Of a DNA stretch of 46,014 nucleotides, positions 1 to 46,014 are shown piece after piece. The notes below the pieces were generated by a model, which worked only from the letters and a program-made list of their open reading frames with translations, ran no database searches and had not been told where the DNA came from. Position numbers and translations under genes: made by a program. This stretch comes from a virus (Duplodnaviria; Caudoviricetes): positions 1 to 46,014 of the IMG/VR virus record IMGVR_UViG_3300048851_000104. One strand, given 5' to 3'. Within the stretch, counting starts at the first letter, position 1, and each line of letters opens with the position of its first letter.

Positions 1-126
1 CTTGAGCAAGCGGACTCCCGCAACCTCGGCGCCCTGTGTTGGGAAATCTTCCTCGACGAGTACGGACCCGAAGTCGCAGGCAAGTATCTCGACGCCTGTG
101 AGGCGGGCGACCTCCATACCCAGGTC
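1..126. repeat. Exact 126-bp terminal duplication (copy 1); assembly circularisation overlap
   Basis: 1-126 is identical to 45889-46014 and lies in frame inside the polymerase CDS. Confidence 0.95.
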
Positions 127-16995: not shown

Positions 16996-16998
16996 CTT

Positions 16999-17280: not shown

Positions 17281-17283
17281 GGC

Positions 17284-17766: not shown

Positions 17767-17778
17767 TGGATCACCTCC

Positions 17779-19405: not shown

Positions 19406-19685
19406 CGTTTACTTCCTGTTGCATTCGGGACCAGCCGATGGGATCGACTGAGGTGATGTCGGCCATTAAGCGCTGGCCTATGCTCATTTCTCCACAGTTA
19501 AAGCTCGTCGTAAGAGCGTTACCGGTGAAGGGGTTCTGCATGAACTTGGTAAGTCCGAGCAGATAGAAGAGAAATTTGCGACCGCGAGGGGTAGAAAGAA
19601 GTTCGCGGTACTGGGTTTCTATTTCGAGTCTGTCCTCTTCGGCCCACTGGTTGCGGAGGTCGTCAGGGGTGATTTCATCGCTCAT
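19359..19685 (-). CDS. Bbp19-like head protein
   Basis: LLSTPRGRKFLF...FNCGEMSIG motif; lies between portal and scaffold genes. Confidence 0.7.
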   Translation of the reverse strand: MSDEITPDDLRNQWAEEDRLEIETQYRELLSTPRGRKFLFYLLGLTKFMQNPFTGNALTTSFNCGEMSIGQRLMADITSVDPIGWSRMQQEVNDADRTRSDAIRAAER

Positions 19686-19713
19686 TATTACACCATCTTC
19701 CTTGGATTGTCCA
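19685..19713 (-). promoter_or_regulatory. Candidate sigma70-type late promoter (TGGACA-17-TAATAA) for scaffold/capsid genes
   Basis: 17-bp spacing; palindrome 19715-19733 abuts the -35 box. The -10 box overlaps the Bbp19-like start codon. Confidence 0.4.
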
Positions 19714-19714
19714 G

Positions 19715-19733
19715 ATATGGCGCGGGGCCATAC
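19715..19733. promoter_or_regulatory. Palindromic operator-like site, short form RTATGGY-N5-RCCATAY
   Basis: ATATGGC-GCGGG-GCCATAC. Confidence 0.7.
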
Positions 19734-19744
19734 CGTTAACTCAG

Positions 19745-19987
19745 GTAACTCGGCGGGGACAGATCAGCCGGGGCCCGCATTTGCACATGACAACGACTCC
19801 GCCCGATTTTCACCGTGACTCGCCGCCCGCGGGCGCTGAAGCGCCCGCGGGGCAGGGCGGATCACTGGGTGATAATCCGGGGTCGGAGGTCTTTTGTCAA
19901 TGCACAAATTCTTCCCCTGCATGATCCGCACCCTCCGGGTCACGTGCCCCGTCAGCCCCGCCTGCCACTGTGTTACTCTCCGTAACT
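19745..19987 (-). other. Rod-like imperfect hairpin element B containing TTGACA-17-GATTAT (Frpo/sso-like or 6S-like)
   Basis: Long imperfect inverted repeat centred near 19838 in the 354-bp portal/Bbp19 gap; begins (minus strand) with AGTTACGGAGAGTAACAC. Confidence 0.7.
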
Positions 19988-20007
19988 CGAACTCTGGTCG
20001 GAGGCGG

Positions 20008-20040
20008 GTATGGTTCGTACCATTTCGTTACGTGCCATAT
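20008..20040. promoter_or_regulatory. Palindromic operator-like site, long form (14+5+14)
   Basis: GTATGGTTCGTACC-ATTTC-GTTACGTGCCATAT. Confidence 0.7.
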
Positions 20041-21698
20041 CAGCCTCCGAGAATCTGTTGAAGCGCGTTGCTGCCGCCGCCCACGTCGGTCGCACTCAGT
20101 TGCTGTGCGGCGCCGGTGAGTTCGGTGCCGACCTGGACTGCTTGCTGGTCCGCAGCGGCCTGCTTCTGCCCTTGGGTCATGGCCTGGCTTTCGCGAGGGT
20201 CCCTCATGTCCTTCGCCCGGACGCCGAGGTCGCTGCCGTAGTTCCGGACCACCTCTTCCCAGTTAGGAATGTTGAGTACTTCGGGGGCAACAGCGGCGAG
20301 GTTGCCGATGAGGGCGAGCCAGCGCTCCGTCGGAACGGTGGCCACAGCGCGCTGGGCAGTAGAAAGGATGGAGACGTACTGGATTTCAATATCAGCATCG
20401 GCGATCTCCTCGGGCGGTTCGGGCAGCAGCCCGCTTCGTTGCATGATGGCGAAGACGCGGTTGATCGCGGGATCGAGGGCCTCGTTCTCGAACCGTTCCA
20501 GCACCGGACCCAGGAGCACCAGCTTTTCCTCCCGGCGCGCATCGATTTCGGTCGCGCTGCGAACCGTATCGAGTTGGGAGATCATCTGGAAGAGCGGGTT
20601 GTGGAAGGTTTCGCGAATGCGAAGCTGGATCAACTGGATGTCGGCCGAGAGTTCGCCCAGCGGGGGCGCGATCTGATAGAGCGGTTTGGCCCCGATCGAG
20701 TTCGCCCCGGCCACGTAGGTGATCCCGCCTGGGATCGTGGCGGTCGGGCGGTGCTTCAGCTGGATATCCGCGATGATCGGGGGGTTGACGACCTTGTCGA
20801 TGCCCTGAGCTTTGCGGAGTGTTTCCTGCTGAAGTTGTTTCACATCGCCGAGGGACTCAACCGCGGGGCAGGACCCGTACGCGTCGTTGCCTGCGAGTTC
20901 CCAACGGACGAACAGTCCGGGCATCTCGTTGAAGCCCTTCTGGGCCAGGATCGTACCCTTCGGCGCGTCCTTCTCCCAGTAGGTTTCGCGATACTTGAAC
21001 CGCTTCGAGACCTTCCCAGCGCCGTCCGAATTCGGCTCGATCATGTGGTAAACGGTGCGGGGGTTCTGCGCGGCGGCGCCGCCCTTCTTCCACAGGTTGA
21101 GCACCGTCTTGCTGACGTTCTCTTCGCCCCACCGCGAAACCAGCTGCTCAACGGTGTATTCGAACTTCCTCGCGAAAGTGTTGACGGCGAGCCGGTCGTC
21201 CTGGGCGAGGTAGAATTCGCCGAGGGCCGGATTGTAACACCGGATGACGGAGTCGAAATCTTCGTAGATGAGCATCGCGGCTGTGCCGAAGACCACGAGG
21301 TCCAGGTACATAACCGCCATCGCGTTGTAGAAGTTCGACTCCGCGAGCACCATCGACATCCGGCGCGTCACCTCGTCGAGCCACACCCGAACAGGGTTGT
21401 TCGACACAGTGTCGTCCTGGCCCGCAATTCGGAGGCTGAACCACGGACGAGCCGGCGACGTGATGCCGTTCATCATCCCGCTCGCCAGGGTGCGAGCCGC
21501 GATCGTCCCCGTCGAGTCGAGGACCTTCGGGTTCTGCATCGACCGGACGCGGGTTGAGGAGTTCTCGAGCCAGATGTACCGGCGCGGGAGGTAGTAGTCC
21601 GCGAGTTCGCGCCACAGCTGAAAGTACGGCTGCCGCACCGTCTCGAGCTTGCCGACCTTCGCGATCAGCTGGTTGTGAAGTTTGGTGTCAATTTCCAC
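20040..21698 (-). CDS. Portal / head-tail connector (Bbp21 / T7 gp8-like)
   Basis: WRELADYYLP, LASGMMNGITSPARPWF and RSATEIDARREEKLVLLGPVLER. Confidence 0.93.
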   Translation of the reverse strand: MEIDTKLHNQLIAKVGKLETVRQPYFQLWRELADYYLPRRYIWLENSSTRVRSMQNPKVLDSTGTIAARTLASGMMNGITSPARPWFSLRIAGQDDTVSNNPVRVWLDEVTRRMSMVLAESNFYNAMAVMYLDLVVFGTAAMLIYEDFDSVIRCYNPALGEFYLAQDDRLAVNTFARKFEYTVEQLVSRWGEENVSKTVLNLWKKGGAAAQNPRTVYHMIEPNSDGAGKVSKRFKYRETYWEKDAPKGTILAQKGFNEMPGLFVRWELAGNDAYGSCPAVESLGDVKQLQQETLRKAQGIDKVVNPPIIADIQLKHRPTATIPGGITYVAGANSIGAKPLYQIAPPLGELSADIQLIQLRIRETFHNPLFQMISQLDTVRSATEIDARREEKLVLLGPVLERFENEALDPAINRVFAIMQRSGLLPEPPEEIADADIEIQYVSILSTAQRAVATVPTERWLALIGNLAAVAPEVLNIPNWEEVVRNYGSDLGVRAKDMRDPRESQAMTQGQKQAAADQQAVQVGTELTGAAQQLSATDVGGGSNALQQILGG

Positions 21699-21885
21699 TG
21701 GTGGAGCTCCCGATTAGCGAGGGCTTGATGGTGCGGGCCTTCCGGGTCAGCCCCTGACTCGAGGTGGAGATCATCGACCCCGGAACAGTGGCGGCGTTGG
21801 CGGGATCGGCCTCCGGCGCCTCGGCCTGAACCGCAGTGGTCGGGGCTGGTACGGGCTTCGGGGCCTTGGGGAATAGAAAGCTCAT
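21688..21885 (-). CDS. Small Pro/Ala-rich virion protein upstream of the portal gene
   Basis: AGGAG RBS before ATG 21885; MSFLFPKAPKP...SLIG pattern typical of this position. Confidence 0.7.
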   Translation of the reverse strand: MSFLFPKAPKPVPAPTTAVQAEAPEADPANAATVPGSMISTSSQGLTRKARTIKPSLIGSSTSGN

Positions 21886-21899
21886 CGCGGTCTCCTGAG

Positions 21900-23408
21900 T
21901 TAGGCCCAAAGGGTTTCCTGGGCGAAGGGGTTGTAGTCAGATGCGACGGCGGGCGCTTCCATCGCGAATTCCTCTGCGTCCTCAACCGTGAAGGCGAGGT
22001 GCGGCATCGCAAATGTACAGGCCAGGGCGTCGGCGACGTTCGGGCTCGGCACCTTCCGCTTTCGCATGTCCTGCTTCGACTCGAGAAGGATTTCCTCCTT
22101 CTTATTCAGCCCGTACCCAGGCCCGGTGAGTTCGCTCGCCAGCGTGGTGTTTTCCCCGGTGGGGATGTCAGGGATTGAACCCGTCTTCAGCCATTCCCGC
22201 ATGGCGCCCCAAATCTCGGCGCGCTTGTTCGCGTACTTTGTGCCGTCATCTGGGTTCACCCCGTCGGGGCCGGACCCGAAGTCCACCCCGTAGACTGGGA
22301 TTTGCAGTTGCCGGAGGCGGTCCACCACGCCGCCCCCGACACCGCCCTCGTCCACGAACACGATGGAGGCTTTGTGGCGCAGGAACGCGGTTGCCACTTT
22401 GCCGGCTGTTGCCATCGTGTCGAGGCCCGGAAGGATTTCGATGGGGCGCGAACTTGCGTCGGCGCCGCATCTCGGGTAGATGACTGAGGGGTCGTCCCCG
22501 AACCGGCCCACGTCCACTCCGAGAACAACGCTCCCACGCTGCGGAAGTATCTCGCGGTTGACGGCGCGGAGGACGAGGTCAAGGGAGATGAAGCTTTCCG
22601 TATCGACGCGGGGGAACACTCCTCGAACGCGGACGCGCACGAAGTCCGAGTCCTCGCCGTAGTCGTCCACCCACCGCTGGATTTGGGCCTTGTCCGTGAT
22701 CGTAACCTCACGGGAGTCGATCGCGGCGTAGGACCACCGATGAGAGAAGCGCCCGCCAGCAAAGCACTCGCGGAACCGGCCCTTGTTTCGGGTGGGGTTG
22801 CCGAACACGCACCAGAGGATTTGGGTGTTCTTGTCGGTCAGGGCGCCTTCGGTCGTTTCCCAAATGATGTCGGGGATGGCTGAGGCCTCATCGAAGATTA
22901 CCAGGATGCGCTTGCCCTGGTTGTGGAGGCCGGCGAATGCTTCCGTGTTCCGCTCCGACCACGGCACCATGTCGATGCGCCAGGTGCGTTCGTGCGCGGG
23001 GTCCGCCGAGAAGAGCGCCGTTGCGGTCATCTTGAAGAGATCGCGCCCGATGAAGAGGCGGTACCACTTTGCAAGCTCGACCCACGTCTTCGTCTTCAGC
23101 TGATTTTCCGTGTTCGCCGTGACCACACCCTTCGTGTCGGGGAAGGTGGAGATCGCCCAGAGGATGATCCAGCTCACGCAGGCGGACTTACCAATCCCGT
23201 GACCGGAGGTCCGGGCCATTTGGATCGCCCCCGCGAGATCGATCTCCCCGGTGCGAAGGCGCGCCCCGACGTCGCTCAGGAGCTTTTCCTGCCATGCCTC
23301 GGGGCCGAGTTGATCCGCGAGTTCTCCGGGCTCACCCCAGGGAAAGCTGAAGATCACGAACCCCAACGGGTCGTCGGAGAACTCGATCAGGGTTTCAGTC
23401 AGGTCCAC
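21900..23408 (-). CDS. terL: Terminase large subunit
   Basis: SGHGIGKS (Walker A), VIFDEAS (Walker B), FGNPT, and nuclease motifs GVDVGRFGDD and SPNVADAL. Confidence 0.95.
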   Translation of the reverse strand: MDLTETLIEFSDDPLGFVIFSFPWGEPGELADQLGPEAWQEKLLSDVGARLRTGEIDLAGAIQMARTSGHGIGKSACVSWIILWAISTFPDTKGVVTANTENQLKTKTWVELAKWYRLFIGRDLFKMTATALFSADPAHERTWRIDMVPWSERNTEAFAGLHNQGKRILVIFDEASAIPDIIWETTEGALTDKNTQILWCVFGNPTRNKGRFRECFAGGRFSHRWSYAAIDSREVTITDKAQIQRWVDDYGEDSDFVRVRVRGVFPRVDTESFISLDLVLRAVNREILPQRGSVVLGVDVGRFGDDPSVIYPRCGADASSRPIEILPGLDTMATAGKVATAFLRHKASIVFVDEGGVGGGVVDRLRQLQIPVYGVDFGSGPDGVNPDDGTKYANKRAEIWGAMREWLKTGSIPDIPTGENTTLASELTGPGYGLNKKEEILLESKQDMRKRKVPSPNVADALACTFAMPHLAFTVEDAEEFAMEAPAVASDYNPFAQETLWA

Positions 23409-23900
23409 CTAGAGCACCTTTCGAACTTTGCAGGTGATGGAATAACTTGCGCCGATTGCGAGGGTCGGGGCGGTCACGACAACCTTGATCTTCCCGGCAT
23501 TGTCGCACCAGCCCGAGTTCTGAACCAAGTACCCTGCGGGGACTGTGATGGGGAGGATGAGGTAGGTCTCCCCGACTGCGGCCTGGGGGTAGGGCAGCTC
23601 AACAACGCGGGGACCCGTCGTAATCGCAACCACTGCGGTTTGGGTGATGACGAGGGGGTCGAGGATGGCGAGGCCCGGATCACCCTTCGGGCCCTGATCT
23701 CCCTTATCCCCCTTCACCGAGTCGCCCTTGGAACCTTGCGGGCCTTGAGACCCGGAAGGACCCTGAGCCCCCTGAGGGCCTTCTACACCCTGCGCGCCCT
23801 GAGGACCCTGGGGGCCAACTTGTCCTGCCGCCCCGCGGATGGGGAGCACCCCGACCTGTTGCCGGGGCGCCTCGTCTCGCCGAAGTCGGATATCACGCAT
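23409..23900 (-). CDS. Collagen-like (Gly-X-Y) protein
   Basis: 13 consecutive GXY triplets, an interruption, then 5 more; small beta-rich C-terminal domain. Confidence 0.85.
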
Positions 23901-24447
23901 CGTTCGCCCTCCGAGCTGCGAGTCGGGCCCGCGCCGCTTCCATCCGCATCGCGAGGCCGTCGTTCACGTTGACGTGCTGCGTCGACTGTGGGCCGTTCCC
24001 GGTGCGGTCCGTACCCATCGTTACGACCTGAAGGAGCTGGCCGACGGTCAACTTCTCCGGTTCGTCCTCGAGGCGCGTCTGGAGTTCATCCAGGGCATCG
24101 CCCGCGATCCCGGCGAGCTTATCCTGCACCGAACGAAACGCCCGGTCTTTCTCCTCGCGGTAGAATTCGAGGAGTTCCCGGAACGCCGGATCGGCCTTCA
24201 GAATGCTCACCCGCGAGATATCGTACCCGCAGACGATCGCGGCCTCGCCCTCACCCATCCCCGAGGCAATCGCCCTCGCAAGTGCGTGATGGCGGTCCGA
24301 AATCCGCTTGATCGCCGAGGGCTTCGTCCCCCGTTCCGCCGCCAAGAGCGCCACGTCCGCCTCCCCCAGCGACCGCACCGTCCGAGCCGAGACCGGCACG
24401 GCGGCCCGCCCCCGCGTCCGCGGCACTACATCCAGGTCCAGGTCCAC
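23893..24447 (-). CDS. Probable terminase small subunit
   Basis: GAGGGA RBS before GTG 24447; HTH-like [38 protein letters not shown]; first late gene, upstream of terL. Confidence 0.65.
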
Positions 24448-24479
24448 AGCATTTCCCTCGCATTGATTGACTCGGGGGG

Positions 24480-24508
24480 ACTTTACCACGCTTTGGGGAG
24501 GGATGCAA
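24480..24508 (-). promoter_or_regulatory. Late sigma70-type promoter TTGCAT-17-TAAAGT
   Basis: Correct spacing, about 30 bp upstream of the terS start. Confidence 0.6.
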
Positions 24509-24511
24509 GGG

Positions 24512-24530
24512 GTATGGCTTTGAGCCATAT
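24512..24530. promoter_or_regulatory. Operator-like palindrome, short form
   Basis: GTATGGC-TTTGA-GCCATAT, 3 bp upstream of the late -35 box. Confidence 0.75.
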
Positions 24531-24556
24531 CGAGTTTCTCAACACAAAATGCCAGA

Positions 24557-24660
24557 GGGACATGGGTAGGGGGGATGCCGGGGGGTACCAGCGAAGGCCG
24601 GGGGGTGCCTGCGCGCATGAGAGCCGGGGGGTGGGTGCGCCTCGGGTGCATTGCGGGGGC
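24557..24660. repeat. G-run cluster with three GCCGGGGGGT copies
   Basis: Copies at 24577-24586, 24597-24606 and 24623-24632, plus further G3-G6 runs. Confidence 0.8.
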
Positions 24661-24735
24661 GCGAGCCATGCTCGGATTGCATATCGAATTGTGGAGGTGG
24701 GGATAAACAACGCAATAATATTGCTCGAAAGGGGG

Positions 24736-24764
24736 TTGAACCCCGTATGGCTTTGTGCCATATT
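24736..24764 (+). promoter_or_regulatory. Early promoter TTGAAC-17-CATATT, overlapped by operator palindrome 24745-24763
   Basis: Spacer and -10 box contain GTATGGC-TTTGT-GCCATAT. Confidence 0.6.
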
Positions 24765-24799
24765 CAACTCATCGAACAACACAACACACGGAGTTGGAC

Positions 24800-24904
24800 A
24801 TGCAAGACGCGGGACTGGCCATCGGGATTGCGGTATTCGCCCCCTTCCTTTTCGTCATCGGTTTCATCGTACTCGATTGCATCTTTGGGTTCACACAGGA
24901 ATAG
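24800..24904 (+). CDS. 34-aa hydrophobic membrane peptide (not in the ORF track)
   Basis: GGAG RBS; MQDAGLAIGIAVFAPFLFVIGFIVLDCIFGFTQE. Confidence 0.65.
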   Translation: MQDAGLAIGIAVFAPFLFVIGFIVLDCIFGFTQE

Positions 24905-24981
24905 CATGGTTTGCCCCCTGCGGGGGGCTGATCGGGCAATTCCGCCCCCGGCACGAGGTGCCGATTTGATGGAGAAGTGTT

Positions 24982-25500
24982 ATGCAGGTAGTTCGCAACT
25001 TTGTGAAGCGCGCAACGGAAAAGTCCTCGTGGGACGGCGACATCGGGCGTGTGATGCTCGAGACCGATGCGACGGTGATAAAGCTGAACGGCAAGCCCAT
25101 TCCCGCGCAGTCGATGGAATATCTTCTGACTTTCGCCCTGCAGTCCTTGCAGGACGCGTATGCAGGGGCGCAAAGCCTCGACGAGGCGAAGGGGAATTGG
25201 GAGAAGAAACTCGCGGCCATCACGGAAGGCACGCTGGGACAGCGCAGCGGCGGCGGCAGTGTCTCGGAAGAGACGAAGGTCGCCCGGCAGATCACGAAGC
25301 AGGCCCTGAAGGCCAAGATTGCCAAGGGGGAAATGACCGAGGAAGAATGGAAGGACCTTTCGGACGAACGCCTCGACGAGGTGTTTGGGAAGAACGAGGC
25401 GAAACTCCGGCCGCTCGTCGATGCGCGGATTGCCGAACTCAAGAAGGAGCGCGAACGCAAGGCGAAGCTGGCCCAGAGCGCGAGCGACCTCGATCTCTAA
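24982..25500 (+). CDS. Hypothetical early protein, Lys/Glu-rich, ends DLDL
   Basis: GGAG RBS; 172 aa; partial similarity to 36902..37396. Confidence 0.85.
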   Translation: MQVVRNFVKRATEKSSWDGDIGRVMLETDATVIKLNGKPIPAQSMEYLLTFALQSLQDAYAGAQSLDEAKGNWEKKLAAITEGTLGQRSGGGSVSEETKVARQITKQALKAKIAKGEMTEEEWKDLSDERLDEVFGKNEAKLRPLVDARIAELKKERERKAKLAQSASDLDL

Positions 25501-25554
25501 GGACGAAACCGGGCTCCGGCCCGGTCCATGGGTAAGGCCCATGCTGATGAGTCC
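25501..25554 (+). ncRNA. Type II hammerhead ribozyme 1
   Basis: GGAC-GAAA-CCGGGC(TCCG)GCCCGG-TC-CATGGG(TAAGG)CCCATG-CTGATGA-GTCC: complete core and three stems; predicted cleavage after C25526. Confidence 0.92.
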
Positions 25555-25573
25555 AAATTGTGGAGATTGAAAC

Positions 25574-25900
25574 ATGTGTTACGCGCGGGTGGCTGCTGGC
25601 CAGATCAATGCTTATTGCCGGCTGAAGTGGCCCGAGAAGGGCTTCGCCGATATGGCCTCGACGTTGGCCAACGGCTCGGTGATCGACTCGTACGATCACG
25701 TAGGTGGCGGCAGCCACAAATACATTCCGGCGGACGAATTCACGCAAGCCCTCGGCGAACCGATCGGAGCCGGCGTGTATGGATACTGGCAGATGAAAGA
25801 TGGTTCGCTCTTGCTCCGCACTTGCAAGGGCCCTCTCGCATGGGCGCCCCCGTATGTCGAGGGCGAGCCCCGCACCGCACAATGGGGAGAATTCGCATGA
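25574..25900 (+). CDS. Hypothetical early protein
   Basis: GGAG RBS; ATGA-coupled to the next gene. Confidence 0.75.
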   Translation: MCYARVAAGQINAYCRLKWPEKGFADMASTLANGSVIDSYDHVGGGSHKYIPADEFTQALGEPIGAGVYGYWQMKDGSLLLRTCKGPLAWAPPYVEGEPRTAQWGEFA

Positions 25901-25998
25901 CCGCACTGGTTGAATCCGCCATCGCCCGCTACGAGTCGGGCAAGATCACGAAGCGCCAGCTCATCTCGATTTTGAAATGGGCGCTCGGCCACAAATAG
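25897..25998 (+). CDS. 33-aa hypothetical protein
   Basis: GGGGAG RBS, ATGA overlap; MTALVESAIARYESGKITKRQLISILKWALGHK; followed by a terminator. Confidence 0.65.
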   Translation: MTALVESAIARYESGKITKRQLISILKWALGHK

Positions 25999-26022
25999 AC
26001 TGAGCGAGCACGAGCCATACCG

Positions 26023-26056
26023 ACCCCCGTATTTGACCGTACGGGGGTTTTTCTTT
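26023..26056 (+). terminator. Intrinsic terminator
   Basis: ACCCCCGTA/TACGGGGGT stem followed by TTTTCTTT. Confidence 0.85.
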
Positions 26057-26181
26057 GCCCGGCCACCCATGTACCAGACCGCCCCGCCTCGCGCGTCCTG
26101 CCCCCCGCCACGGGCCGGGAAATGGCCATTGGCGCGATGCGCCACCCCCGATCCAATCCCGCCATTCCCCCGCCCCCCTGA

Positions 26182-26577
26182 GTTGGCCTAGCGTAATCCC
26201 CTCGGGCTCGCGCTGGTTCCGGCTAGGGCCCGCTGGTTCAGCCACCTCGCCACATTGCGGTTTTTGGGTTACGTGCCATATCGGGAGGTGGGTATGGTTC
26301 GTAACATGGTGTTACGGTATGGCTCCACCTCCCCCGCATTTGTTTGGGGGTCTACTCCTCTCCTCTTTTGTTTTACCAGTTTTTTTTTTTTTCAGAAATT
26401 GTGGCGAAAATGTGGCAAGACCCGTTACGAGCCATATGGGGCTCACGCCCCATCACCTCCCATCCCCTCACCTCCCGATATGGCACGTAACCCATTTCAC
26501 ACAACATGGGCGTGGCGTGAAACTAGCTAGGCGTAGGTGAAACTAGGGCATACCACAGGACATTACGCTAGGCCAAC
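26182..26577. repeat. Nested, co-centred inverted repeats around a T13 run; candidate replication origin
   Basis: Perfect 16-bp IR (26182-26197 / 26562-26577) and perfect 26-bp IR (26265-26290 / 26469-26494), both centred at 26379.5; T run at 26380-26392. Confidence 0.85.
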
Positions 26578-26620
26578 CTAGCGCCACGCGGGCGGGATGC
26601 GGTATGTATGCGCTGGGTAT

Positions 26621-26655
26621 GTATGGTTGACAACCATACCAGTTTTGGGTAAAAT
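26621..26655 (+). promoter_or_regulatory. Near-consensus sigma70 promoter TTGACA-17-TAAAAT, with an operator palindrome centred on the -35 box
   Basis: GTATGGT-TGACA-ACCATAC (26621-26639); -35 at 26627-26632, -10 at 26650-26655. Confidence 0.85.
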
Positions 26656-26987
26656 TGGCGCATTGTCCCGGCCCCGCGTGGTTTCGGGATACCTGATCAA
26701 CGAGGGGCGCGGCCCCACATGGGAGGTGCATCATGTAAAGGACTGGCCACGTAAACCGCCGCAACCTAGTCCCTCGCGGGGTGGCCCGCGAACAATCCGC
26801 GAGGGGCGCCCCGGTGTCACATGGTGAGTCCCTCGGGGGATTGATCGGGCGACACCAGCCCCCTCGCCTCGGCGAGTGTTCTTTGAATCGGTCTGGAAAA
26901 CTACCACAACCAATGCAAGGTATTGCATGGCGGGGGGCGCAATTGCGCCCCTCATCGAGCAATCCCGCTCAACCCTCGGAGCACCTT

Positions 26988-27209
26988 ATGCAAACCATCC
27001 ACGCACCAGCCGGTCTTACCATATTCCGGCCCGACTCCCGCAACGGCTCAAAGGATTTCTTCATCGACCGCGAACAGGCAAAAAAGTTGTTCGCCGAGGG
27101 CGTTATATATGGAGACGCCACGAACGGCGGCTACATGCCCAGCCCCAAAACGCCGCACAATTTCAAAGCCCTCTATCAGGTTGTGCCGAAAAAGCGCAAA
27201 TCTCGTTGA
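26988..27209 (+). CDS. Hypothetical early protein (73 aa)
   Basis: GGAG RBS before ATG 26988 (MQTIHAP...). Confidence 0.75.
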   Translation: MQTIHAPAGLTIFRPDSRNGSKDFFIDREQAKKLFAEGVIYGDATNGGYMPSPKTPHNFKALYQVVPKKRKSR

Positions 27210-27234
27210 CATTCCGCAGCGGGCGCACTACGGT
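27206..27234 (+). promoter_or_regulatory. Candidate promoter TTGACA-17-TACGGT
   Basis: Perfect -35 box, correct spacing, intergenic position. Confidence 0.5.
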
Positions 27235-27279
27235 GCGCTCATTGAGTAATGTCGCTCACCCCAACCTTCGGAGTCGCAA

Positions 27280-27381
27280 ATGCGCACCGCACTTTCCTAC
27301 CTCTACGATGCCGCCGTCATGGCCCTCGAGGCCGCGGTCCTCACCGCCTTCCTCGCAACCCTTTTCGTATGGCTGGTGTGA
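27280..27381 (+). CDS. 33-aa hydrophobic membrane peptide (not in the ORF track)
   Basis: GGAG RBS; MRTALSYLYDAAVMALEAAVLTAFLATLFVWLV; next ATG follows 1 nt after the stop. Confidence 0.65.
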   Translation: MRTALSYLYDAAVMALEAAVLTAFLATLFVWLV

Positions 27382-27382
27382 C

Positions 27383-27640
27383 ATGAGCAGTCTTTCCGAC
27401 TACAGCGATATGATCTCACGACTGGGGGATGAGCGCCGAGTTAAAGAAGCCCGGCTGGTAGAAAATCTAACCAACGAACTTCCTGAGTGGTCGGCCAAAT
27501 TGACCGGCTACGGAATTGAAGAGTTGTTTGATCTGTATGATCAGGCGCTTGTCGGCGGCATCTCAAATCCTCGTATTCTCGCAGTATTGATGACTCGTAA
27601 AGGGCTCATCCGAGATGAGATTATTCGGAGGACAAAATAA
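27383..27640 (+). CDS. Hypothetical protein
   Basis: MSSLSDYSDM... portion of the track ORF; TAATG-coupled to the next gene. Confidence 0.65.
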   Translation: MSSLSDYSDMISRLGDERRVKEARLVENLTNELPEWSAKLTGYGIEELFDLYDQALVGGISNPRILAVLMTRKGLIRDEIIRRTK

Positions 27641-27966
27641 TGCCCGTCGATATCGCCCAGCTCCCCCTCTACATCGAGCGCGTCACCAAAGCCATGCGCG
27701 ACAAACGTGCCCAGGCGGATATGATCTCCCCCGAGGACCAGAAGCTCATGAAGGAGCGCCGCATGGCCCAGATCGACGCCCTCTCCCCCGAGCTTCGGGC
27801 CCTCGTCCACGAGTACGGCTGGCTCGTGGTCCGCAAGTACGTCGCCGCAGGCATGTCCCCCAAGGCCATCAAGTTCTCGATAGAAAAGAACTTCGAGGAT
27901 TGGCGGAAGCTGCAAGAGCAGCGGGACTACGAAGCGGCCCTCGCAACGCTGGAGTTGGAACTATGA
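27640..27966 (+). CDS. Hypothetical protein, ends LELEL
   Basis: GGAGG RBS; coupled at both ends. Confidence 0.8.
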   Translation: MPVDIAQLPLYIERVTKAMRDKRAQADMISPEDQKLMKERRMAQIDALSPELRALVHEYGWLVVRKYVAAGMSPKAIKFSIEKNFEDWRKLQEQRDYEAALATLELEL

Positions 27967-28160
27967 ACGCACTGCGCGAAGCGTATCTCGGGTTTTACGA
28001 GAACGAACTCGAGCATCTCAGCCCCGAGGCCCGCACCGGTGAGGTACGGAAGCTCATTGCGGCACACAAGCCCAAAGAGCGCCTCGCCGTGTACCTCATG
28101 TGGAACGGCATCTATGGCTACACCGACCAGATTTTCGCAATCGCAACGGGAGAACACTGA
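27963..28160 (+). CDS. Hypothetical protein
   Basis: ATGA overlap; MNALREAY... Confidence 0.75.
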   Translation: MNALREAYLGFYENELEHLSPEARTGEVRKLIAAHKPKERLAVYLMWNGIYGYTDQIFAIATGEH

Positions 28161-28411
28161 TGTCCACTCTCAATCACCTCCTCGCAGTCACCGGCCCGAT
28201 GACTAACGAACTCGCCGACGAGATCAAGTATCATTTCATCCGCCACGAGTCCCAGGAAGTCATCGCCCTGGCCCAAGAATTCCAGCGCCTCGCACAGAAG
28301 GCGCCGGAAGGCAATTTCGTGCCTGCCCCGAATTACATCCGTCAGGCGATGGCCTGCAAAGACTTCGAGCAGGCCCGCCGACTCACCAACGCAATCGAGG
28401 CACTTTCGTGA
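28160..28411 (+). CDS. Hypothetical protein
   Basis: TGATG coupling, GGAG RBS; MSTLNHLL... Confidence 0.75.
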   Translation: MSTLNHLLAVTGPMTNELADEIKYHFIRHESQEVIALAQEFQRLAQKAPEGNFVPAPNYIRQAMACKDFEQARRLTNAIEALS

Positions 28412-28695
28412 TGTCGCCGGAACTCAAAGAAGTCCTTCGCGAGTGGTACGAGGACGCCACATCCGAAAATCCCTCAGCTAGGGTAAAGGAGTACGGCCTT
28501 TGCAGTTACGCTGAGGATTTCGGTGGAAGGCGTCTCGAAGATGAGCTTTCATCGACACTTTACGTAAGTACAGGGAATGCATCCTTCCCGTTCGATCTTG
28601 GCCCAGTTGAATATTGGGCCGACCGGAACAAACACCTCAACCCCCGCCGCCTCGCATGGGTGCGCAGCATGATTGGAGAGCCCAATGCTGACTAA
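28408..28695 (+). CDS. Hypothetical protein
   Basis: Coupled to the upstream stop; part of a contiguous operon. Confidence 0.7.
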   Translation: MMSPELKEVLREWYEDATSENPSARVKEYGLCSYAEDFGGRRLEDELSSTLYVSTGNASFPFDLGPVEYWADRNKHLNPRRLAWVRSMIGEPNAD

Positions 28696-29038
28696 GCAGG
28701 AAATCTTCACCAAGGTATATGTGGCCCTGCGCGAGCGGGGCTTCACTCGTGCGGTGCTCGAGGAGAACAACGTGACCGTGTGCGCCTATCGCGGGGATGT
28801 CGGCCCGTGCGCAGTCGGCATTCTTATGACCGATGAGGAATACAGCCCGGCCTTCGAGGGAAAAAAAGGCCGCAATCTAATACCACATATCGCGGCACTC
28901 GAGGGATATGATACTCGGGAAGGCCGCATGTTCGTTAGCCAACTTCAGAGCGCCCACGACAGCGGCGTCCATCCGGAAGGGATGCAATGGCTTCTTTCCG
29001 CGATGGCCGACCGCTACGACCTCGAAGTGCCCGCATGA
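28685..29038 (+). CDS. Hypothetical protein (CAYRG..CAVG..LQSAHD motif, possibly metal-binding)
   Basis: GGAG RBS before MLTKQEIF; Cys/His pattern. Confidence 0.8.
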   Translation: MLTKQEIFTKVYVALRERGFTRAVLEENNVTVCAYRGDVGPCAVGILMTDEEYSPAFEGKKGRNLIPHIAALEGYDTREGRMFVSQLQSAHDSGVHPEGMQWLLSAMADRYDLEVPA

Positions 29039-29235
29039 ACATCACCCTCCAGCGCCTCGGCGTCTCCACCCGCGAGATCGCCTACGACAACCAGACCGTC
29101 GCGGTCGCCCGCATCCTACAGGCTGCGGCCCAGGGCCGGCCCATCCGTCAACCCTCGAGCGTCTTCCTCGCACAGGCCCACGCCCTCAACAGCAACCCGC
29201 GCCTCGCCGCGCTTCTTAAGGAGTACGTTCGATGA
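29035..29235 (+). CDS. Hypothetical protein
   Basis: ATGA overlaps at both ends. Confidence 0.7.
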   Translation: MNITLQRLGVSTREIAYDNQTVAVARILQAAAQGRPIRQPSSVFLAQAHALNSNPRLAALLKEYVR

Positions 29236-29432
29236 AGGTTCGTTGCATCAGGGCCGGGGCGGACGTTGCCTATCTCACCGCCGGCAAAATCTACGAGGCC
29301 TATGACATCAACGAAATGTCGTTCCTCGTCCATGACAACGACGGCGACGAGCTTTATTGCCTCTGGGAAAGCTGTTTCCACGCAGAATGGGAGCGCCTCG
29401 AAAGCACTGAAGTTACGGAGAGTAACACGTGA
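29232..29432 (+). CDS. Small beta-barrel-like hypothetical protein
   Basis: AAGGAG RBS; MKVRCI...LTAGKIYE...DNDGD pattern common in phage small proteins. Confidence 0.75.
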   Translation: MKVRCIRAGADVAYLTAGKIYEAYDINEMSFLVHDNDGDELYCLWESCFHAEWERLESTEVTESNT

Positions 29433-29666
29433 GGGGCCCCGACCGGGCGGGCGTTCACGCCCAGGTCGAAAAATTGGGAGGGGGAGACCCGCGCGTTACC
29501 CCAACGGGGTTGACAGACTGACCACCCCCAATCATTCCCCAGTTGGGGACAAGCCGCGGCGGGCCTGAAAGGCCCGCCGGGCGCAGGCCCCATGGGAATG
29601 GGGTGGGAAGGATGTCACCGCGAGGTCGGGCCCCGACAATTTTTGACGGGCCTCCAGTTACGGAGA
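29411..29666 (+). other. Rod-like imperfect hairpin element A containing TTGACA (Frpo/sso-like or 6S-like)
   Basis: Imperfect IR centred on 29567-29569 in a 240-bp gap; starts with AGTTACGGAGAGTAACAC and ends with AGTTACGGAGA. Confidence 0.7.
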
Positions 29667-34969: not shown

Positions 34970-35238
34970 TGCCCCTCGGCGTTGGAACTATCCTCGGCGG
35001 TCTTCCGGTCGTCGCCGACGTATCATTCGGACGCGACGATTTTACTGGCGAGTATTGGGCCGAGGTCGAACACATATACTGGCTTAAAAAAGGAGACAAA
35101 CCCGGCAAAAAAATTCCTCAGCACGTTCGAGACCGTGCCGCCAAATACGACCATTATTTCTCAAACCTAATCGAACAGGTGAGTGATTATCTCGCCTATC
35201 AAAATTACGAAGAACAGGAAAAGGTACAACTGCTATGA
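34969..35238 (+). CDS. Hypothetical protein
   Basis: TGATG coupling; MPLGVGTI... Confidence 0.75.
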   Translation: MPLGVGTILGGLPVVADVSFGRDDFTGEYWAEVEHIYWLKKGDKPGKKIPQHVRDRAAKYDHYFSNLIEQVSDYLAYQNYEEQEKVQLL

Positions 35239-36722
35239 CATTCTCTCTGACCGACGCCCCCGAGCGTCCGACCATCACCCCGACCGCCGAACAGCTCGCC
35301 ATCATCGAGGCTGGCCGAGACACCGAGGACAACCTCATCATCAGTGCCCTCGCCGGCGCGGCCAAGACCTCCACCTTGGTGATGCTCGCCGAGGCGGTCC
35401 CGGTCCGCACCCTCTGCCTCGCCTTCAACAAGAAGATCGCGGACGAGATGAAGTCCCGGCTTCCCCGCCACTGCGAGGCCATGACCCTCAACAGCCTCGG
35501 CCACCGCATCTGGGGCGACACCATCGGTCGCCGCCTCACCATCAACTCCCAAAAGATCGGCGACCTGCTGAAGGACGAGATCGCCAAGCTCGAGGACAAG
35601 GAACTCGAGAAGGCTGCGTGGGAAATCTTCACCGATCTCCTCCGCGCTATCTCCTTCGGCAAGTCCTGCGGTTACATCCCCGACGGATACAAGGCACCGC
35701 GAGATGCCAAGTACGTCGCCCTCATGGGAGACGATGACTTCCAGGACCACCACGAGGAGAAGCTCGCGGACTGGGAATGGCACCTCATCCGCAGCGTCAC
35801 CCTCCGTAGCCTCGACCTCGCGTGGAAGGGCGAGTGCGACTACGACGACCAGATCCTCATGCCCACCATTTTTCAGGCCGTCTTCCCACGTTACCCCCTC
35901 ATTCTGATCGACGAGGCCCAGGACCTTTCCGCGTTGAACCACGCCACGCTCCGCAAGCTCGTCAAGAAACGCCTGATCGCCGTCGGCGACCCGTGCCAGG
36001 CCATCTATGGATTCCGGGGCGCCCACGAGGAGTCGATGGAACTTCTCGAGGAGTCCTTCCAGATGCGAAAGCTCATGCTTTCCGTCTCCTTCCGATGCCC
36101 CCGCAAAGTGGTCGAGCACGCTCGGTGGCGGGCGCCGCACATGCAGCATCCGGAATGGGCACAGCTCGGTGAGGTCCAGTACCTGGGCTCATGGTCGGTC
36201 GACGACCTTCCAGCCCACGCTGCGATCATCTGCCGCAACAACGCTCCGCTCTTCGCGATGGCGATCAAGTTGCTGAAGAACGGGCGTTACGCCCAACTCG
36301 TCGGCAACGATATCGGCAAGGGCCTGGTCCGCATCATGTCCAAGTTCGGCCCGCGCAACATGCCGCAAGAAGACCTGCTGGCGGCGATCGATGAGTGGTC
36401 CGCGAAGAAGGAGGAGAAGACCAAGAACCCGGGCTCCATCCGAGATCGCGCCGAGTGCATGAGGATTTTCGCCCGCCAAGGCAAGGACCTCTCCGACGCC
36501 ATCGCATATGCCGAGCATATCTTCAACTGCGACGGCCCGATCAAGCTGATGACCGGCCACAAATCCAAGGGCCTCGAGTTCGATAACGTCTTCATCCTCG
36601 ACCGGGACCTTATCAGCGACAAAGGCCAGGACCGCAACCTCCGCTACGTGATGCAGACGCGGGCGAAGCACAGCCTCACTTACATCAACTCGGCGGACCT
36701 CATGGAGGACGGTCCAGCCTGA
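35235..36722 (+). CDS. Superfamily 1 (UvrD/Rep-like) helicase
   Basis: ALAGAAKT, LAFNK, LIDEAQD, VGDPCQAIYGFRGA, SFRCP, ICRNN, TGHKSKGLEF and YVMQTRAK. Confidence 0.93.
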   Translation: MTFSLTDAPERPTITPTAEQLAIIEAGRDTEDNLIISALAGAAKTSTLVMLAEAVPVRTLCLAFNKKIADEMKSRLPRHCEAMTLNSLGHRIWGDTIGRRLTINSQKIGDLLKDEIAKLEDKELEKAAWEIFTDLLRAISFGKSCGYIPDGYKAPRDAKYVALMGDDDFQDHHEEKLADWEWHLIRSVTLRSLDLAWKGECDYDDQILMPTIFQAVFPRYPLILIDEAQDLSALNHATLRKLVKKRLIAVGDPCQAIYGFRGAHEESMELLEESFQMRKLMLSVSFRCPRKVVEHARWRAPHMQHPEWAQLGEVQYLGSWSVDDLPAHAAIICRNNAPLFAMAIKLLKNGRYAQLVGNDIGKGLVRIMSKFGPRNMPQEDLLAAIDEWSAKKEEKTKNPGSIRDRAECMRIFARQGKDLSDAIAYAEHIFNCDGPIKLMTGHKSKGLEFDNVFILDRDLISDKGQDRNLRYVMQTRAKHSLTYINSADLMEDGPA

Positions 36723-36779
36723 TATGGCTCGTAACATTTCGTTATGAACCATACAGCCCCGTATGGTCAGAAGCCATAT
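36722..36779. promoter_or_regulatory. Tandem long and short operator-like palindromes
   Basis: ATATGGCTCGTAAC-ATTTC-GTTATGAACCATAC (36722-36754) and GTATGGT-CAGAA-GCCATAT (36761-36779). Confidence 0.75.
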
Positions 36780-36831
36780 CACTTTTTATGTTCGATGTGG
36801 CAAAAAACCATACCACCCTGCGTAAGGGGGG

Positions 36832-37396: not shown

Positions 37397-37416
37397 GGGC
37401 TTCGCCCTCTGACCTC

Positions 37417-40951: not shown

Positions 40952-41419
40952 ATGTCTTTTAACTTTAACGATATCGCAGGTCAGAAACTCGAAGAAGTCA
41001 AGAAGGTCCCGCTCGCACCGGTCGGCACGTATCGCTGGATGATCACGAAGCTCCCGTCGATCCGCGACTTCAAGGGCAACGACGGCACGGAATACCAGGC
41101 CATCGATTTCCCCTGCCAGGTCGTGGAGCCGCTCGAAGACGTCGACGTCACCGAGTATCCGGGCGACGTGACGGACATCCGCCAGACCCTCTCGTTCATG
41201 TTCAACAAGAACGACGAGGTCGCCTTCATCCAGTGCCAGAACCAGGTCAAGCGTTTCCTCGTCGACACCCTGGGCTGCATCGGTGAGGACGCCTCGATCA
41301 AGGAGGGCTTCAACGCTGCGGTGAAGAAGCAGTTCCTCGCCCCGATCAACCACAACGTCGACAAGCGCGACGAGTCGATCACCCGCGCCAACATCGGCAG
41401 GGCGATGCCGCTCGACTAA
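40952..41419 (+). CDS. Probable ssDNA-binding protein (DUF669-like OB fold)
   Basis: PLAPVGTYRWMI N-terminal motif; directly after the Sak4-like gene; followed by a terminator. Confidence 0.65.
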   Translation: MSFNFNDIAGQKLEEVKKVPLAPVGTYRWMITKLPSIRDFKGNDGTEYQAIDFPCQVVEPLEDVDVTEYPGDVTDIRQTLSFMFNKNDEVAFIQCQNQVKRFLVDTLGCIGEDASIKEGFNAAVKKQFLAPINHNVDKRDESITRANIGRAMPLD

Positions 41420-43501: not shown

Positions 43502-44548
43502 ATGACCCAGTACCCAATCATGTTGATTGGCGAAGCGTACGGTGAGGAGGAGGAGGCCGCCCAGGGCCTCCCCTTCGTCGGGAAGTCCGGCTGGTTCATC
43601 AAACAACTTCTCGCCCAGTCCGGCATCGAGTTCCGCCAGTGTTACGCCACCACCGTTTTCAACCTTCAGCCCAAGCCTACAAACGACATCGTCAATCTGT
43701 GCGGGCCGAAGATAGAGGGCATCCCAGGAATGCCCGCGCTTGTGAAAGGGAAGCACGTCAATGCCCAATACACCCCCGAGCTTCGCCGCCTCTACGAAGA
43801 GATCAACGCTGTCAACCCTAACCTCATCATTGCGTTGGGCGCGACGGCGGCTTGGGCTCTACTCGGAACCAGCGGTATCAAGACTATACGTGGTGCACCT
43901 ATCGGCGCGACTGCTCCGGGAGCCGCTGCAACCGGGGTCAGTCTATCTCGTACCTTCAAAGTACTACCGACGTATCATCCAGCGGCTGTCTTACGTGAGT
44001 GGTCTTTACGACCCGTTATTCTGGCGGACCTTGATAAAGCCCGCCGCAATTCCTACGAGCCAGACATTCGTCGTCCTTCCCGTGAGATCTGGATTGAACC
44101 AACCCTCAGCGATCTTGAAGAGTATGAGCAGCGGTACATCGTACCAGCGAGTCGACTCTCCATCGACATCGAAACTAAGGGCGATCAGATAACCTGCGTT
44201 GGCTTCGCCCCCTCCACGTCGAGCGCGATGGTCATCCCGTTCTGGTCCGCGTCGCAGCGTGACGGCAACTACTGGCGAACCCTGGAAGACGAGCTAATCG
44301 CATGGGACTTCGCCCGCCGTTGGTGCGCCATGAAACCCTCCGTTTTCCAGAACGGACTCTACGACATCCACCGCCTGTGGCGCACCTACGGCATCACATG
44401 CAACCTCGCCGAGCACGACACCATGCTTCTGCACCATGCGCAGCAACCGGAAATGGAGAAGGGCCTTGCCTTCCTCGCCACCGTGTACACCGAGGAAGCA
44501 AGCTGGAAGTTCATGTCCAAGACAGACACGCTGAAGAAGGAAGATTGA
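43502..44548 (+). CDS. Family-4 UDG-like domain fused to the N-terminal part (Exo I/II) of the PolA 3'-5' exonuclease
   Basis: IGEAYG, PFVGKSG, ALGATA and TYHPAAVLR (UDG); SIDIET (Exo I), QNGLYD (Exo II) and HDTMLLHH. Confidence 0.88.
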   Translation: MTQYPIMLIGEAYGEEEEAAQGLPFVGKSGWFIKQLLAQSGIEFRQCYATTVFNLQPKPTNDIVNLCGPKIEGIPGMPALVKGKHVNAQYTPELRRLYEEINAVNPNLIIALGATAAWALLGTSGIKTIRGAPIGATAPGAAATGVSLSRTFKVLPTYHPAAVLREWSLRPVILADLDKARRNSYEPDIRRPSREIWIEPTLSDLEEYEQRYIVPASRLSIDIETKGDQITCVGFAPSTSSAMVIPFWSASQRDGNYWRTLEDELIAWDFARRWCAMKPSVFQNGLYDIHRLWRTYGITCNLAEHDTMLLHHAQQPEMEKGLAFLATVYTEEASWKFMSKTDTLKKED

Positions 44549-44834: not shown

Positions 44835-45184
44835 TGATCTACCTCGCATCCCCATACAGCCACCCCGATACGCTGATCATGAAGACGCGGTTCCTCTTGG
44901 CCGAGCAGGCCACCGCCATCCTCACGATCGCCGGCCAGCACGTCTATTCTCCGATCGTCCACTACCACGAGATCGCCAGGAAGTTCACCCTCCAGACCGA
45001 CTTCGCTTTCTGGAAGTTCATCAACTTCGACATGATCCGCAAGGCCGATGCGTTCTACATCCTGAACATCGACGGCTGGGAAACGAGTAAAGGCGTGGCC
45101 GCTGAGAAAGCCTTCGCACAGGAATGCGGCCTCACCATTTCCGCCGTGAACCCCGAGGGAGTCGTATCGCCGTGGCTCGCATAA
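44834..45184 (+). CDS. DUF1937 / nucleoside 2-deoxyribosyltransferase-fold protein
   Basis: MIYLASPYSHP...VYSPIVH...GWETSKGVAAE. Confidence 0.82.
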   Translation: MIYLASPYSHPDTLIMKTRFLLAEQATAILTIAGQHVYSPIVHYHEIARKFTLQTDFAFWKFINFDMIRKADAFYILNIDGWETSKGVAAEKAFAQECGLTISAVNPEGVVSPWLA

Positions 45185-46014
45185 TCAATACCGCCGATCT
45201 CACGCCAGCCGCCGTCGCCGCCATGTCGAAGGATACTTCGTATTGGGTTTACAACGGCCTCGACGTCTGCGTTACCGAGGAAGTTCTTCAGGCCTGCCTT
45301 CCGAACCTCGACGCCACCAGCGCCGCGACCTACAAATTCTCCCGCGAACTCCAGGCGCCGGTTTTGGAAATGATGATGCGTGGGCTGAAGGTCAACCAGT
45401 CCCGACGCCACGTCGTCATCAAGGAGTTCGAGGCAAAGCTTGCTATCCTCGAGGCTCAGTTCCAACGCCTGTGTATGGAGGGCATCGGCCTTCCCTCCCC
45501 CGTAAACTGGCGGTCGCCCAAGCAGCTCAACCAGCTTCTTTACGAGGTGATGAACCTCCCCATCCAACGAAAGAGGAACACCAATGGTATCTTTGCTCCG
45601 GCCTCCGGGCGAGAACAACTTGAAAAGCTTTCTCAATACTTTATCGCAGAGCCAATCGTTTCGCATCTTCTTGCGCTTCGAGACCTCGGGAAATCTCTTG
45701 GATTCCTACGAACAGGTATTGACCCAGATGGAAGGATGCGAACCAATATCAATATCGCTGGAACAAATACTGGTCGATGGGCGTCCAGTGAAAGCGATTA
45801 TGGTACTGGCACAAATCTCCAAAACGTAACCTCGTCCCTTCGCTCCGTCTTCGTCGCTGACCCAGGAATGAAGCTTTGCAACATGGACCTTGAGCAAGCG
45901 GACTCCCGCAACCTCGGCGCCCTGTGTTGGGAAATCTTCCTCGACGAGTACGGACCCGAAGTCGCAGGCAAGTATCTCGACGCCTGTGAGGCGGGCGACC
46001 TCCATACCCAGGTC
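45172..46014 (+). CDS. polA: Family A DNA polymerase, N-terminal part (Exo III, thumb, motif A); absent from the ORF track because it runs off the end
   Basis: GTG start after GAGGGAG; WVYNGLDVCVT (Exo III), NWRSPKQL, TNTGRWAS, NLQNV, RSVFVADPG and MDLEQADSR; in frame with position 1. Confidence 0.93.
   Translation, partial: MARIINTADLTPAAVAAMSKDTSYWVYNGLDVCVTEEVLQACLPNLDATSAATYKFSRELQAPVLEMMMRGLKVNQSRRHVVIKEFEAKLAILEAQFQRLCMEGIGLPSPVNWRSPKQLNQLLYEVMNLPIQRKRNTNGIFAPASGREQLEKLSQYFIAEPIVSHLLALRDLGKSLGFLRTGIDPDGRMRTNINIAGTNTGRWASSESDYGTGTNLQNVTSSLRSVFVADPGMKLCNMDLEQADSRNLGALCWEIFLDEYGPEVAGKYLDACEAGDLHTQV
45889..46014. repeat. Exact 126-bp terminal duplication (copy 2)
   Basis: Identical to 1-126. 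Confidence 0.95.

Follow-up and report, generated by a model that had tools for sequence, protein, structure and literature searches.

We analysed a stretch of 46,014 nucleotides (nt) of viral DNA (Duplodnaviria; Caudoviricetes; IMG/VR record IMGVR_UViG_3300048851_000104), referred to below as the window, which carries two rod-forming elements, A and B, on either side of a central inverted repeat. The window amounts to a complete phage genome of 45,888 bp that is circularly permuted, with ends overlapping by 126 nt. Its genes form two divergent arms, split at about 24.5-26.6 kb of the window: the late arm, on the minus strand, contains the terminase, portal, capsid and tail genes, and the early arm lies on the plus strand. 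Element A (29411..29666, plus strand) is located in the early arm. Element B (19745..19987, minus strand) lies between the portal and capsid-assembly genes, with the portal (head-tail adaptor) gene (20040..21698, minus strand) directly upstream. The central site (26182..26577) is a nested imperfect inverted repeat with TATGG/CCATA boxes.

Both elements begin with the same 18-mer, as a sequence-only reading of this DNA had pointed out. The copy at 29411-29428 (plus strand) lies within the last codons of a 66-aa open reading frame (ORF, 29232-29432), and its exact reverse complement at 19970-19987 (minus strand) forms a small hairpin with a GGAGA loop at the 5' end of B. The only other exact repeats of at least 18 nt in the genome are the central arms, and at up to 3 mismatches the 18-mer had 5 matches against 0.56 expected. 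Folding of A and B as rods, also claimed in that reading, was borne out by z-scores of -6.3 (A) and -6.9 (B) for RNA and -6.6 (A) and -6.0 (B) for DNA, with 0 of 200 shuffles as good. The hexamer TTGACA, said to stand 57-61 nt before the loop, was measured at 57 nt (A) and 60 nt (B) from its start to the loop. In A, a side hairpin precedes the -35 box (TTGACA, 29510-29515), which is followed by a 17-nt spacer, a -10 candidate (CATTCC) and a GAA triloop (29567-29569). In B, the -35 box (TTGACA, 19900-19895), a 17-nt spacer and the -10 box (GATTAT, 19877-19872) are followed by the apical loop TTCA (19837-19840). The statement that A and B otherwise differ in sequence did not hold, as TGTCA and GGGCCCCG in the 3' arm are common to both, and the two belong to one family of promoter-mimic rods. 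The 18-mer is present in none of the 7 other family members. A 16-mer taken from it was tried as a family marker and dropped; it matched 11 viral contigs, none of which matched the rod model.

The rod family has nine members: A and B of the window (winA and winB), two in the relative G002, and one each in G001, G010, G003 and the partial contigs L010 and L210. The rods of G001, G010, L010 and L210 lie after the portal gene, those of G002 in the early arm and after the portal gene, and that of G003 in the gap between terminase and portal. Three members (G002B, L210 and G010) were recovered by a covariance model that had not been trained on them (E 5.7e-9, 3.1e-9 and 1.1e-11); this model, R1, covers 32 pairs only and matches its training members by construction. 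The de novo rod scan misses weak members, and L010 was spotted by eye. All nine rods contain a TTGAC-like hexamer (TTGACA/G in 8, TTTACT in 1) 53-60 nt before the loop, a spacer of 17-18 nt, an A at position -11, and an unpaired patch within or beside the -10 box. The common anatomy places the -35 box at the base of the 5' arm, and includes a GC-rich tip and a closing GGG(G/C)(A/C)CCC-like helix. Of the two arms, the 3' one is the shorter, by 5-11 nt, and it always retains GTCA. An A/T tract is paired across the rod base, alternating between an A-run and a T-run among members; in A-type members it is 31-34 nt from the -35 box on the 5' arm versus 19-23 nt on the 3' arm, because the side hairpin loops out. 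Compensatory changes were found at 11 of 70 pairs between winA and G003, 10 of 77 between G002B and G001B, and 16 of 77 between winB and G002B, which argues that the fold is selected on a single strand.

Base pairing and loops were then compared with those of RNA structures. G-T pairs made up 35 of 647 pairs in the rods (5.4%), against 37 of 291 (12.7%) in 25 phage terminators (p 1.8e-4); further values were 8 of 62 (12.9%) for one 6S RNA, 21 of 229 (9.2%) for Frpo1/2, and 12.5% for random coding folds. Arm mismatches in eight members comprised 24 A.G, 11 C.T, 8 G.T and 7 A.C. The loops are 3-4 nt long (GAA, GTAA, GCAA, TTCA, CCTG), with a GAA triloop in 4 of 9 and GNAA in 3 of 9. GNA triloops, which are stable in DNA, occurred in 0 of the 25 phage terminators. 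Because G-T pairs are few, G.T and A.C mismatches are similar in number, and GAA triloops occur in four members, the rods likely fold as single-stranded DNA. The TTGACA strand is indicated, since A.G mismatches exceed C.T mismatches and the loops agree. Fold energies favour this strand only slightly, and the evidence for DNA rather than RNA is circumstantial.

The central site contains arms at 26265-26290/26469-26494 (26 nt, 100% identity) and at 26182-26197/26562-26577, both centred on 26379.5. It folds with a z-score of -8.1 and is the best inverted-repeat window of the genome (score 117, versus 68 for the runner-up). The arms and centre of the symmetric structure that had been proposed here are thus present, but its core is asymmetric: a T13 run (26380..26392, plus strand), the sole A/T run of at least 8 nt in the genome, is found on one strand only and is bordered on the left by a pyrimidine tract. 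The first early sigma-70-type promoter (TTGACA-17-TAAAAT, 26627..26655, plus strand), with an equivalent in G001-G003, follows closely to the right of the inverted repeat. Across a set of 22 near-complete genomes (G000-G005 and G007-G022), an A/T run of 8-29 nt between arms, at a single locus and with T on the early-coding strand, is present in 20; the other two are linear records that are 94-95% complete. The flanking inverted repeat beat all of 150 random windows in 18 of the 20 genomes, and all but one in the remaining 2. Similar sites occur in the phages Mel-JY34 and LS06 and in Vibrio phage VS-ABTNL-3. In Caulobacter phage Kuura, an A-run ends 55 nt before a 606-bp terminal repeat, which is a PhageTerm call (PMC9959647). 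The records of PaMx41 and 119X begin and end at the equivalent site, and Shea, a relative of PaP2, has terminally redundant ends (PMC13348215). The Kuura repeat and the PaMx41/119X record ends suggest that the site may also be an end-processing signal. Its AT-rich core between inverted boxes fits an origin, for which we see about an even chance, and the two roles can be compatible.

The replication genes of the window encode a superfamily 1 (SF1, UvrD-like) helicase (35235..36722, plus strand), a Sak4-like protein, a PD-(D/E)XK nuclease, a probable single-strand binding protein (SSB; 40952..41419, plus strand; a lead only, from a look-alike cluster with DUF669 in 16% of its members), a uracil-DNA glycosylase (UDG) joined to the N-terminal (exonuclease) part of the polymerase, a family A DNA polymerase (PolA), and a stand-alone DUF3987 protein. 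The polymerase gene runs from 45175..45888 (plus strand) over the circular junction into 1..840 (plus strand) with its reading frame unchanged, so the polymerase domain is intact over the assembly junction. The split in PolA instead lies between the polymerase gene and the separate UDG and exonuclease gene (43502..44548, plus strand). This split, which had been taken to fit the proposed replication scheme, was found in 22 of 22 near-complete relatives, with rods or with none; UDG is fused to the first part, and small genes separate the two parts. Mel-JY34 and LS06, likewise equipped with the helicase, have PolA as one fused gene. The split therefore lends the scheme no support.

The DUF3987 protein (837..2030, plus strand; Pfam E 5.7e-16) is predicted to be an MCM-like AAA+ helicase of superfamily 6 (SF6) without a primase domain. 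Its structure model (predicted local distance difference test score 87.9) had MCM chains only among the top matches listed (Foldseek E 1e-9). The PHROG label 'DNA primase' for this gene was rejected because Pfam and the predicted fold show only the helicase part. DUF3987 proteins are described as SF6 helicases usually tied to a primase (Kazlauskas et al., PMC4889955), and one of them as a demonstrated helicase that unwinds 5' to 3' (PMC11724360). In agreement with the earlier remark that a primase is missing, no primase domain was found in 60 window proteins searched against PHROGs and 26 against Pfam, or in 103 further ORFs. The latter comprised 5 window ORFs and 98 from relatives, the 98 being cluster representatives, or singletons on the early strand, chosen among 313 unassigned ORFs that measured at least 170 aa; a small or strongly divergent primase may be present in these phages. 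The phage group is large, with 1,418 homologues among 7,998 scored candidates.

To place the rods among these phages, rods were called with the covariance model together with an arm-alignment scan at a score of at least 42, leaving out lower-scoring matches inside genes; ten shuffled genomes gave one match at 37 and none above. Each of the 22 near-complete genomes carries the split polymerase together with the genes for DUF3987 and the SF1 helicase. Both rods were found in 2 (G000 and G002, which are sisters with support 0.77), the late-arm rod alone in 3, and no rod in 17. We therefore regard the rods as accessory, and the suggestion that A and B explain the missing primase is not upheld, as genomes with the same replication genes mostly do without them. 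In 2.06 Mb of partial loci, 16 matches reached a score of at least 40, and 7 of these were members already known. Among the stretches listed by two pattern scans of viral contigs (56 in one, at least 120 in the other), the only members were known ones, with none outside the clade. A coarse genome-wide fold scan recovered known rods at z-scores of only -3 to -4, among many other windows, and 7 such windows that were inspected contained no promoter rod; branched folds may exist in rod-free genomes. Searches by blastn of A and B against 50,697 phage records gave no match, and a search of A against plasmids gave two 27-nt chance matches only.

Seven named relatives were also scanned. In PaMx41 and 119X, which belong to a single lineage, one rod (TTTATA-17-TAGCGT) is on the plus strand after the portal region and the other (TTAACT-18-TATAGA) is on the minus strand in the early arm, with fold z-scores of -3.9 to -5.8. 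VS-ABTNL-3 has two paralogous, opposite rods 1.9 kb left and 2.9 kb right of the T-run (z-scores -7.0 and -5.9). No intergenic rod was found in Kuura, Tiera or Mel-JY34, and LS06 gave unclear AT-rich matches only. Co-occurrence of the three elements in relatives had been suggested as a check. The central site is present in 20 of 22 genomes and both rods in 2 of 22, and the opposite rod pairs of PaMx41/119X and VS-ABTNL-3 are the best support for the layout as first described. In a distant portal relative (L029, at 2450), we also observed a palindromic rod whose two arms both bear promoter-like boxes.

Comparison with known systems shows partial likeness to several. The RNA-polymerase-dependent single-strand origins ssoA and ssoU of rolling-circle plasmids are described (PMC8860593, PMC5703833) as long imperfect hairpins with the polymerase site at the loop-distal base and a primer made toward the loop; their position is flexible, and their orientation is fixed to one strand. 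The rods are likewise predicted to form long imperfect hairpins when single-stranded, with covariation, and, as judged by sequence geometry only and against those descriptions, carry promoter-like boxes in the stem with the polymerase site at the loop-distal base. Unlike ssoA, their loops are tight (GAA/GNAA) and lack CS-6, they are optional within the clade, and they occur in a tailed double-stranded DNA phage with PolA and an MCM-like helicase, in which no nicking initiator was found among the scanned proteins. The Frpo/ssi elements of the F and ColIb leading regions are rods that rebuild the -35 and -10 boxes in single-stranded DNA and can prime, according to PMC9849209 and PMC11541004. Our fold of the F element puts TTGACG on the 5' arm at the base, as in the rods. 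Unlike here, the folded strand in F is the template of the downstream genes, the TTGACG arm being antisense to ssb and ygeA; in the phage family it is the coding strand in 9 of 9, and a transcript started from the fold would therefore run antisense, toward the centre. The Frpo rod is also shorter, and A has no sequence match in plasmids. By the features compared, the phage rods may act like an RNA-polymerase-dependent single-strand origin, and are members of neither ssoA nor Frpo.

The oriV of IncQ plasmids (RSF1010) has opposite signals, ssiA and ssiB, inside the origin, which prime outward for strand-displacement synthesis and need a plasmid primase. The phage layout resembles it in having two opposite single-strand signals with proposed strand-displacement synthesis, but no element-encoded primase was found in the phage, and its rods lie 2.3-9.1 kb from the centre and would prime inward. 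In the arrangement of divergent arms and of PolA followed by a stand-alone DUF3987 gene (25-34% identity), the genome resembles Fredfastierviridae (PaP2, 119X, PaMx41), Kuura and VS-ABTNL-3, but the capsid and portal modules differ. By DUF3987 identity the nearest named phages are Kuura (34%), LS06 and the PaP2/119X/PaMx41 group (25%). The rods also resemble 6S RNA in size and could mimic a promoter as it does, but they have no Rfam match, low G-U content, a literal -35 box and the opposite geometry. Five weak Rfam matches were found in the window, none of them 6S and none in A, B or the centre. Consistent with the impression that such an arrangement had not been met in tailed phages, neither sso-like rods nor the T-run site were described for them in the literature searched, the scope of which did not extend to subscription papers, including the PaMx41 transcription map.

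The analysis shows how the rods fold and covary, their promoter geometry and their distribution, and that no primase is recognisable. On this footing we tentatively hypothesize, at a little below an even chance, that A and B are accessory promoters in folded single-stranded DNA that prime the second strand through host RNA polymerase, beside a clade-wide site that is likely the origin and close to the likely genome end. Opening of the centre and displacement of a strand would be the work of the MCM-like DUF3987 helicase and PolA. On the displaced strand the rod would fold with the -35 box at the base and the -10 box toward the loop, the 5' arm supplying the non-template -35 and -10 boxes and the 3' arm the template, which the polymerase would copy toward the loop. 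Movement toward the loop is described for plasmid sso elements (PMC8860593). Extension of the primer, at A as at B, would run back toward the centre or the genome end; as had been argued, the promoter arms lie on the strands that would be displaced, with the right polarity for priming in this direction. A single rod for each displaced strand or genome length would suffice if the tail is of the rolling-circle or concatemer kind, and this fits the genomes with one rod. Rod-free relatives must prime otherwise, most simply by host primase or primosome, and the rods would therefore be a booster and not the core of the system. Seven of the 9 family members are B-side rods. Compared at fourfold sites, late coding strands have more G than early ones in 21 of 22 genomes and more T in 18 of 22, with a GC skew difference (late minus early coding strands) that averages 0.36 and is positive in 21 of 22. 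The B-side rods and this skew weakly suggest that the minus (late-coding) strand is the one mostly displaced, with codon bias and kinship as confounders.

Several observations weigh against this hypothesis, besides the 17 rod-free genomes and the lack of CS-6. All nine rods are sense to local transcription, and when the DNA is duplex the promoter arm reads as an ordinary promoter; among 8 sigma-70 matches within 10.8 kb, B ranks second, and the TACCCC..GGGTTGACA context reappears at a rod-free promoter (36810-36850). Folding of the reverse strand is almost as good, and in 2-3 of 8 members it is better. Each member comparison shows 15-37 broken pairs in automatic alignments, partly from misalignment. 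The left VS-ABTNL-3 rod has non-canonical spacing, and the rods of the distant phages are like A and B in architecture without detectable sequence likeness. No rolling-circle initiator was found among the scanned proteins, which for the relatives were ORFs of at least 170 aa.

The sequence-only reading had gone further, proposing that strand displacement starts at the centre and runs symmetrically in both directions, A and B being obligatory second-strand origins in place of a primase. The polarity of A and B, the failure to find a primase, and the opposite rod pairs that flank the centre in G000/G002, PaMx41/119X and VS-ABTNL-3 all agree with this proposal. Nevertheless we hold it to be quite unlikely: both rods occur only in two sister genomes, the T-run is on one strand only, and symmetric forks predict no skew difference between the arms, while one was observed in 21 of 22 genomes (codon bias confounds). 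In addition, priming from A and B back to the centre of a theta bubble would fill 3,181 + 6,549 nt, or 10.6% of both strands. What persists of that reading is its observations and, likely, the single-stranded promoter mimics; its strong version, with an obligatory pair and symmetric forks, is improbable. A broader scheme also seems to us unlikely, in which primase-less phages of at least three lineages (this clade, PaMx41/119X and VS-ABTNL-3) would use an MCM-like helicase at a T-run genome-end site, bidirectional displacement by PolA and host RNA polymerase priming at two opposite rods, with rod-free relatives using folds that the scans missed. Possible, though rather doubtful, is a central site that is mainly a signal for terminal-repeat duplication or packaging at the concatemer junction, as the junction palindrome of T7 is, with the rods helping to finish genome ends. 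The Kuura A-run beside its terminal repeat and the PaMx41/119X record ends speak for this, as does the fact that A and B both would prime toward the predicted ends. However, the only sequencing run listed with window DNA (there was none of RNA) is a soil metagenome that may be the source of the window, and it gave one flat contig with no end or depth signal; in Kuura, which is distantly related, the inverted repeat is at background level (10 of 150 random windows were as good); assembly artefacts can produce contig breaks at the T-run; and the AT-rich core between inverted boxes is also origin-like.

Other explanations concern the rods themselves. They might be ordinary duplex sigma-70 promoters whose transcript carries an antisense promoter copy, leading to self-silencing, attenuation or a centre-pointing R-loop. 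This would account for the sense orientation upstream of genes in all nine, a purine 7 nt after the -10 box in most members, a promoter context common to rod-free phage promoters, a terminator-like hairpin at 29625-29637, and a post-portal site that houses other accessory inserts in relatives. We consider it unlikely, because G002B keeps a perfect -35 box on the 3' arm and not on the 5' arm, the 3'-arm T-run becomes an A-run in 3 members, and GAA triloops suit DNA; the R-loop form is weakened further by a 3' arm that is 5-11 nt shorter and skips the whole side hairpin. The sense orientation, strong RNA folds and GNAA and UUCA loops (4 of 9) would also suit non-coding RNAs of ~240 nt made from upstream promoters and acting as RNA-polymerase decoys, like a phage-made 6S RNA, and B follows a TATGG/CCATA box pair that is maybe a promoter. 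Such RNAs have a low probability given the absence of an Rfam match, a G-U content under half that of terminators and 6S RNA, the lack of a large central bubble in most members, and a -35 box at the base, opposite to the 6S geometry. The rods also have an exact -35 box and A/T tract, features that are read from B-form DNA. Finally, the patchy distribution, three different intergenic sites and an 11-nt direct repeat flanking A would be expected of selfish or neutral palindromic inserts with no replication role. The fixed promoter geometry, covariation and constant sense orientation, together with the lack of any transposase found and of matches outside the clade among the stretches listed by two pattern scans, make this very improbable.

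TATGG/CCATA boxes recur at 20007-20040, 24511-24530, 36721-36780, 43120-43152 and 19714-19733 and in the central arms, in many cases as pairs with a distance of about 25 nt, directly behind a stop codon or ahead of a -35 box, and at matching positions in G001, G002 and G010. They are probably binding sites of a phage regulator or initiator protein. One pair belongs to the late promoter after B (TGGACA-18-AATAAT, 19684..19735, minus strand), which is also present in rod-free relatives. The gap after the portal gene contains differing inserts in close relatives (L002 11730-12050, L004 1630-1740, L001 5920-6100), named by eye as a GIY-YIG-like ORF, a remnant of the same, and a small cysteine-containing ORF.

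Between the small terminase gene and the central site lies the gene of a conserved 172-aa protein (24982..25500, plus strand), to which no function is assigned and for which an atlas look-up gave no match. It and 36902-37396 are probable paralogues in one conserved protein family with 13 members in 11 genomes. Six small proteins (24982-25500, 27640-27966, 31009-31320, 31324-31683, 31680-31958, 38476-38679) have a C-terminal acidic-leucine tail, (D/E)L(D/E/G)L, which may be a shared docking motif, and a 131-aa protein (31968-32363) ends in DDIPF, resembling the bacterial SSB tail. In-frame insertions of about 250-300 aa, possibly inteins, are present in PolA of G010 (15652-18084) and in the SF1 helicase of G007 (23753-26029). 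The sliding scan placed the genome's strongest local fold at 37330-37520 (z-score -6.1), where three tandem hairpins precede a HIRAN gene; low-energy windows occur at this position in G001-G003 and G005 too.

DUF3987 helicases are normally paired with a primase (PMC4889955), and none was found among the proteins scanned from this large phage group. The rods and the clade-wide T-run inverted-repeat site provide two concrete handles on priming, and PaMx41, a cultured phage with a rod pair, makes the idea directly testable. If the rods do prime, tailed phages would join plasmids and filamentous phages as carriers of RNA-polymerase-dependent single-strand origins.

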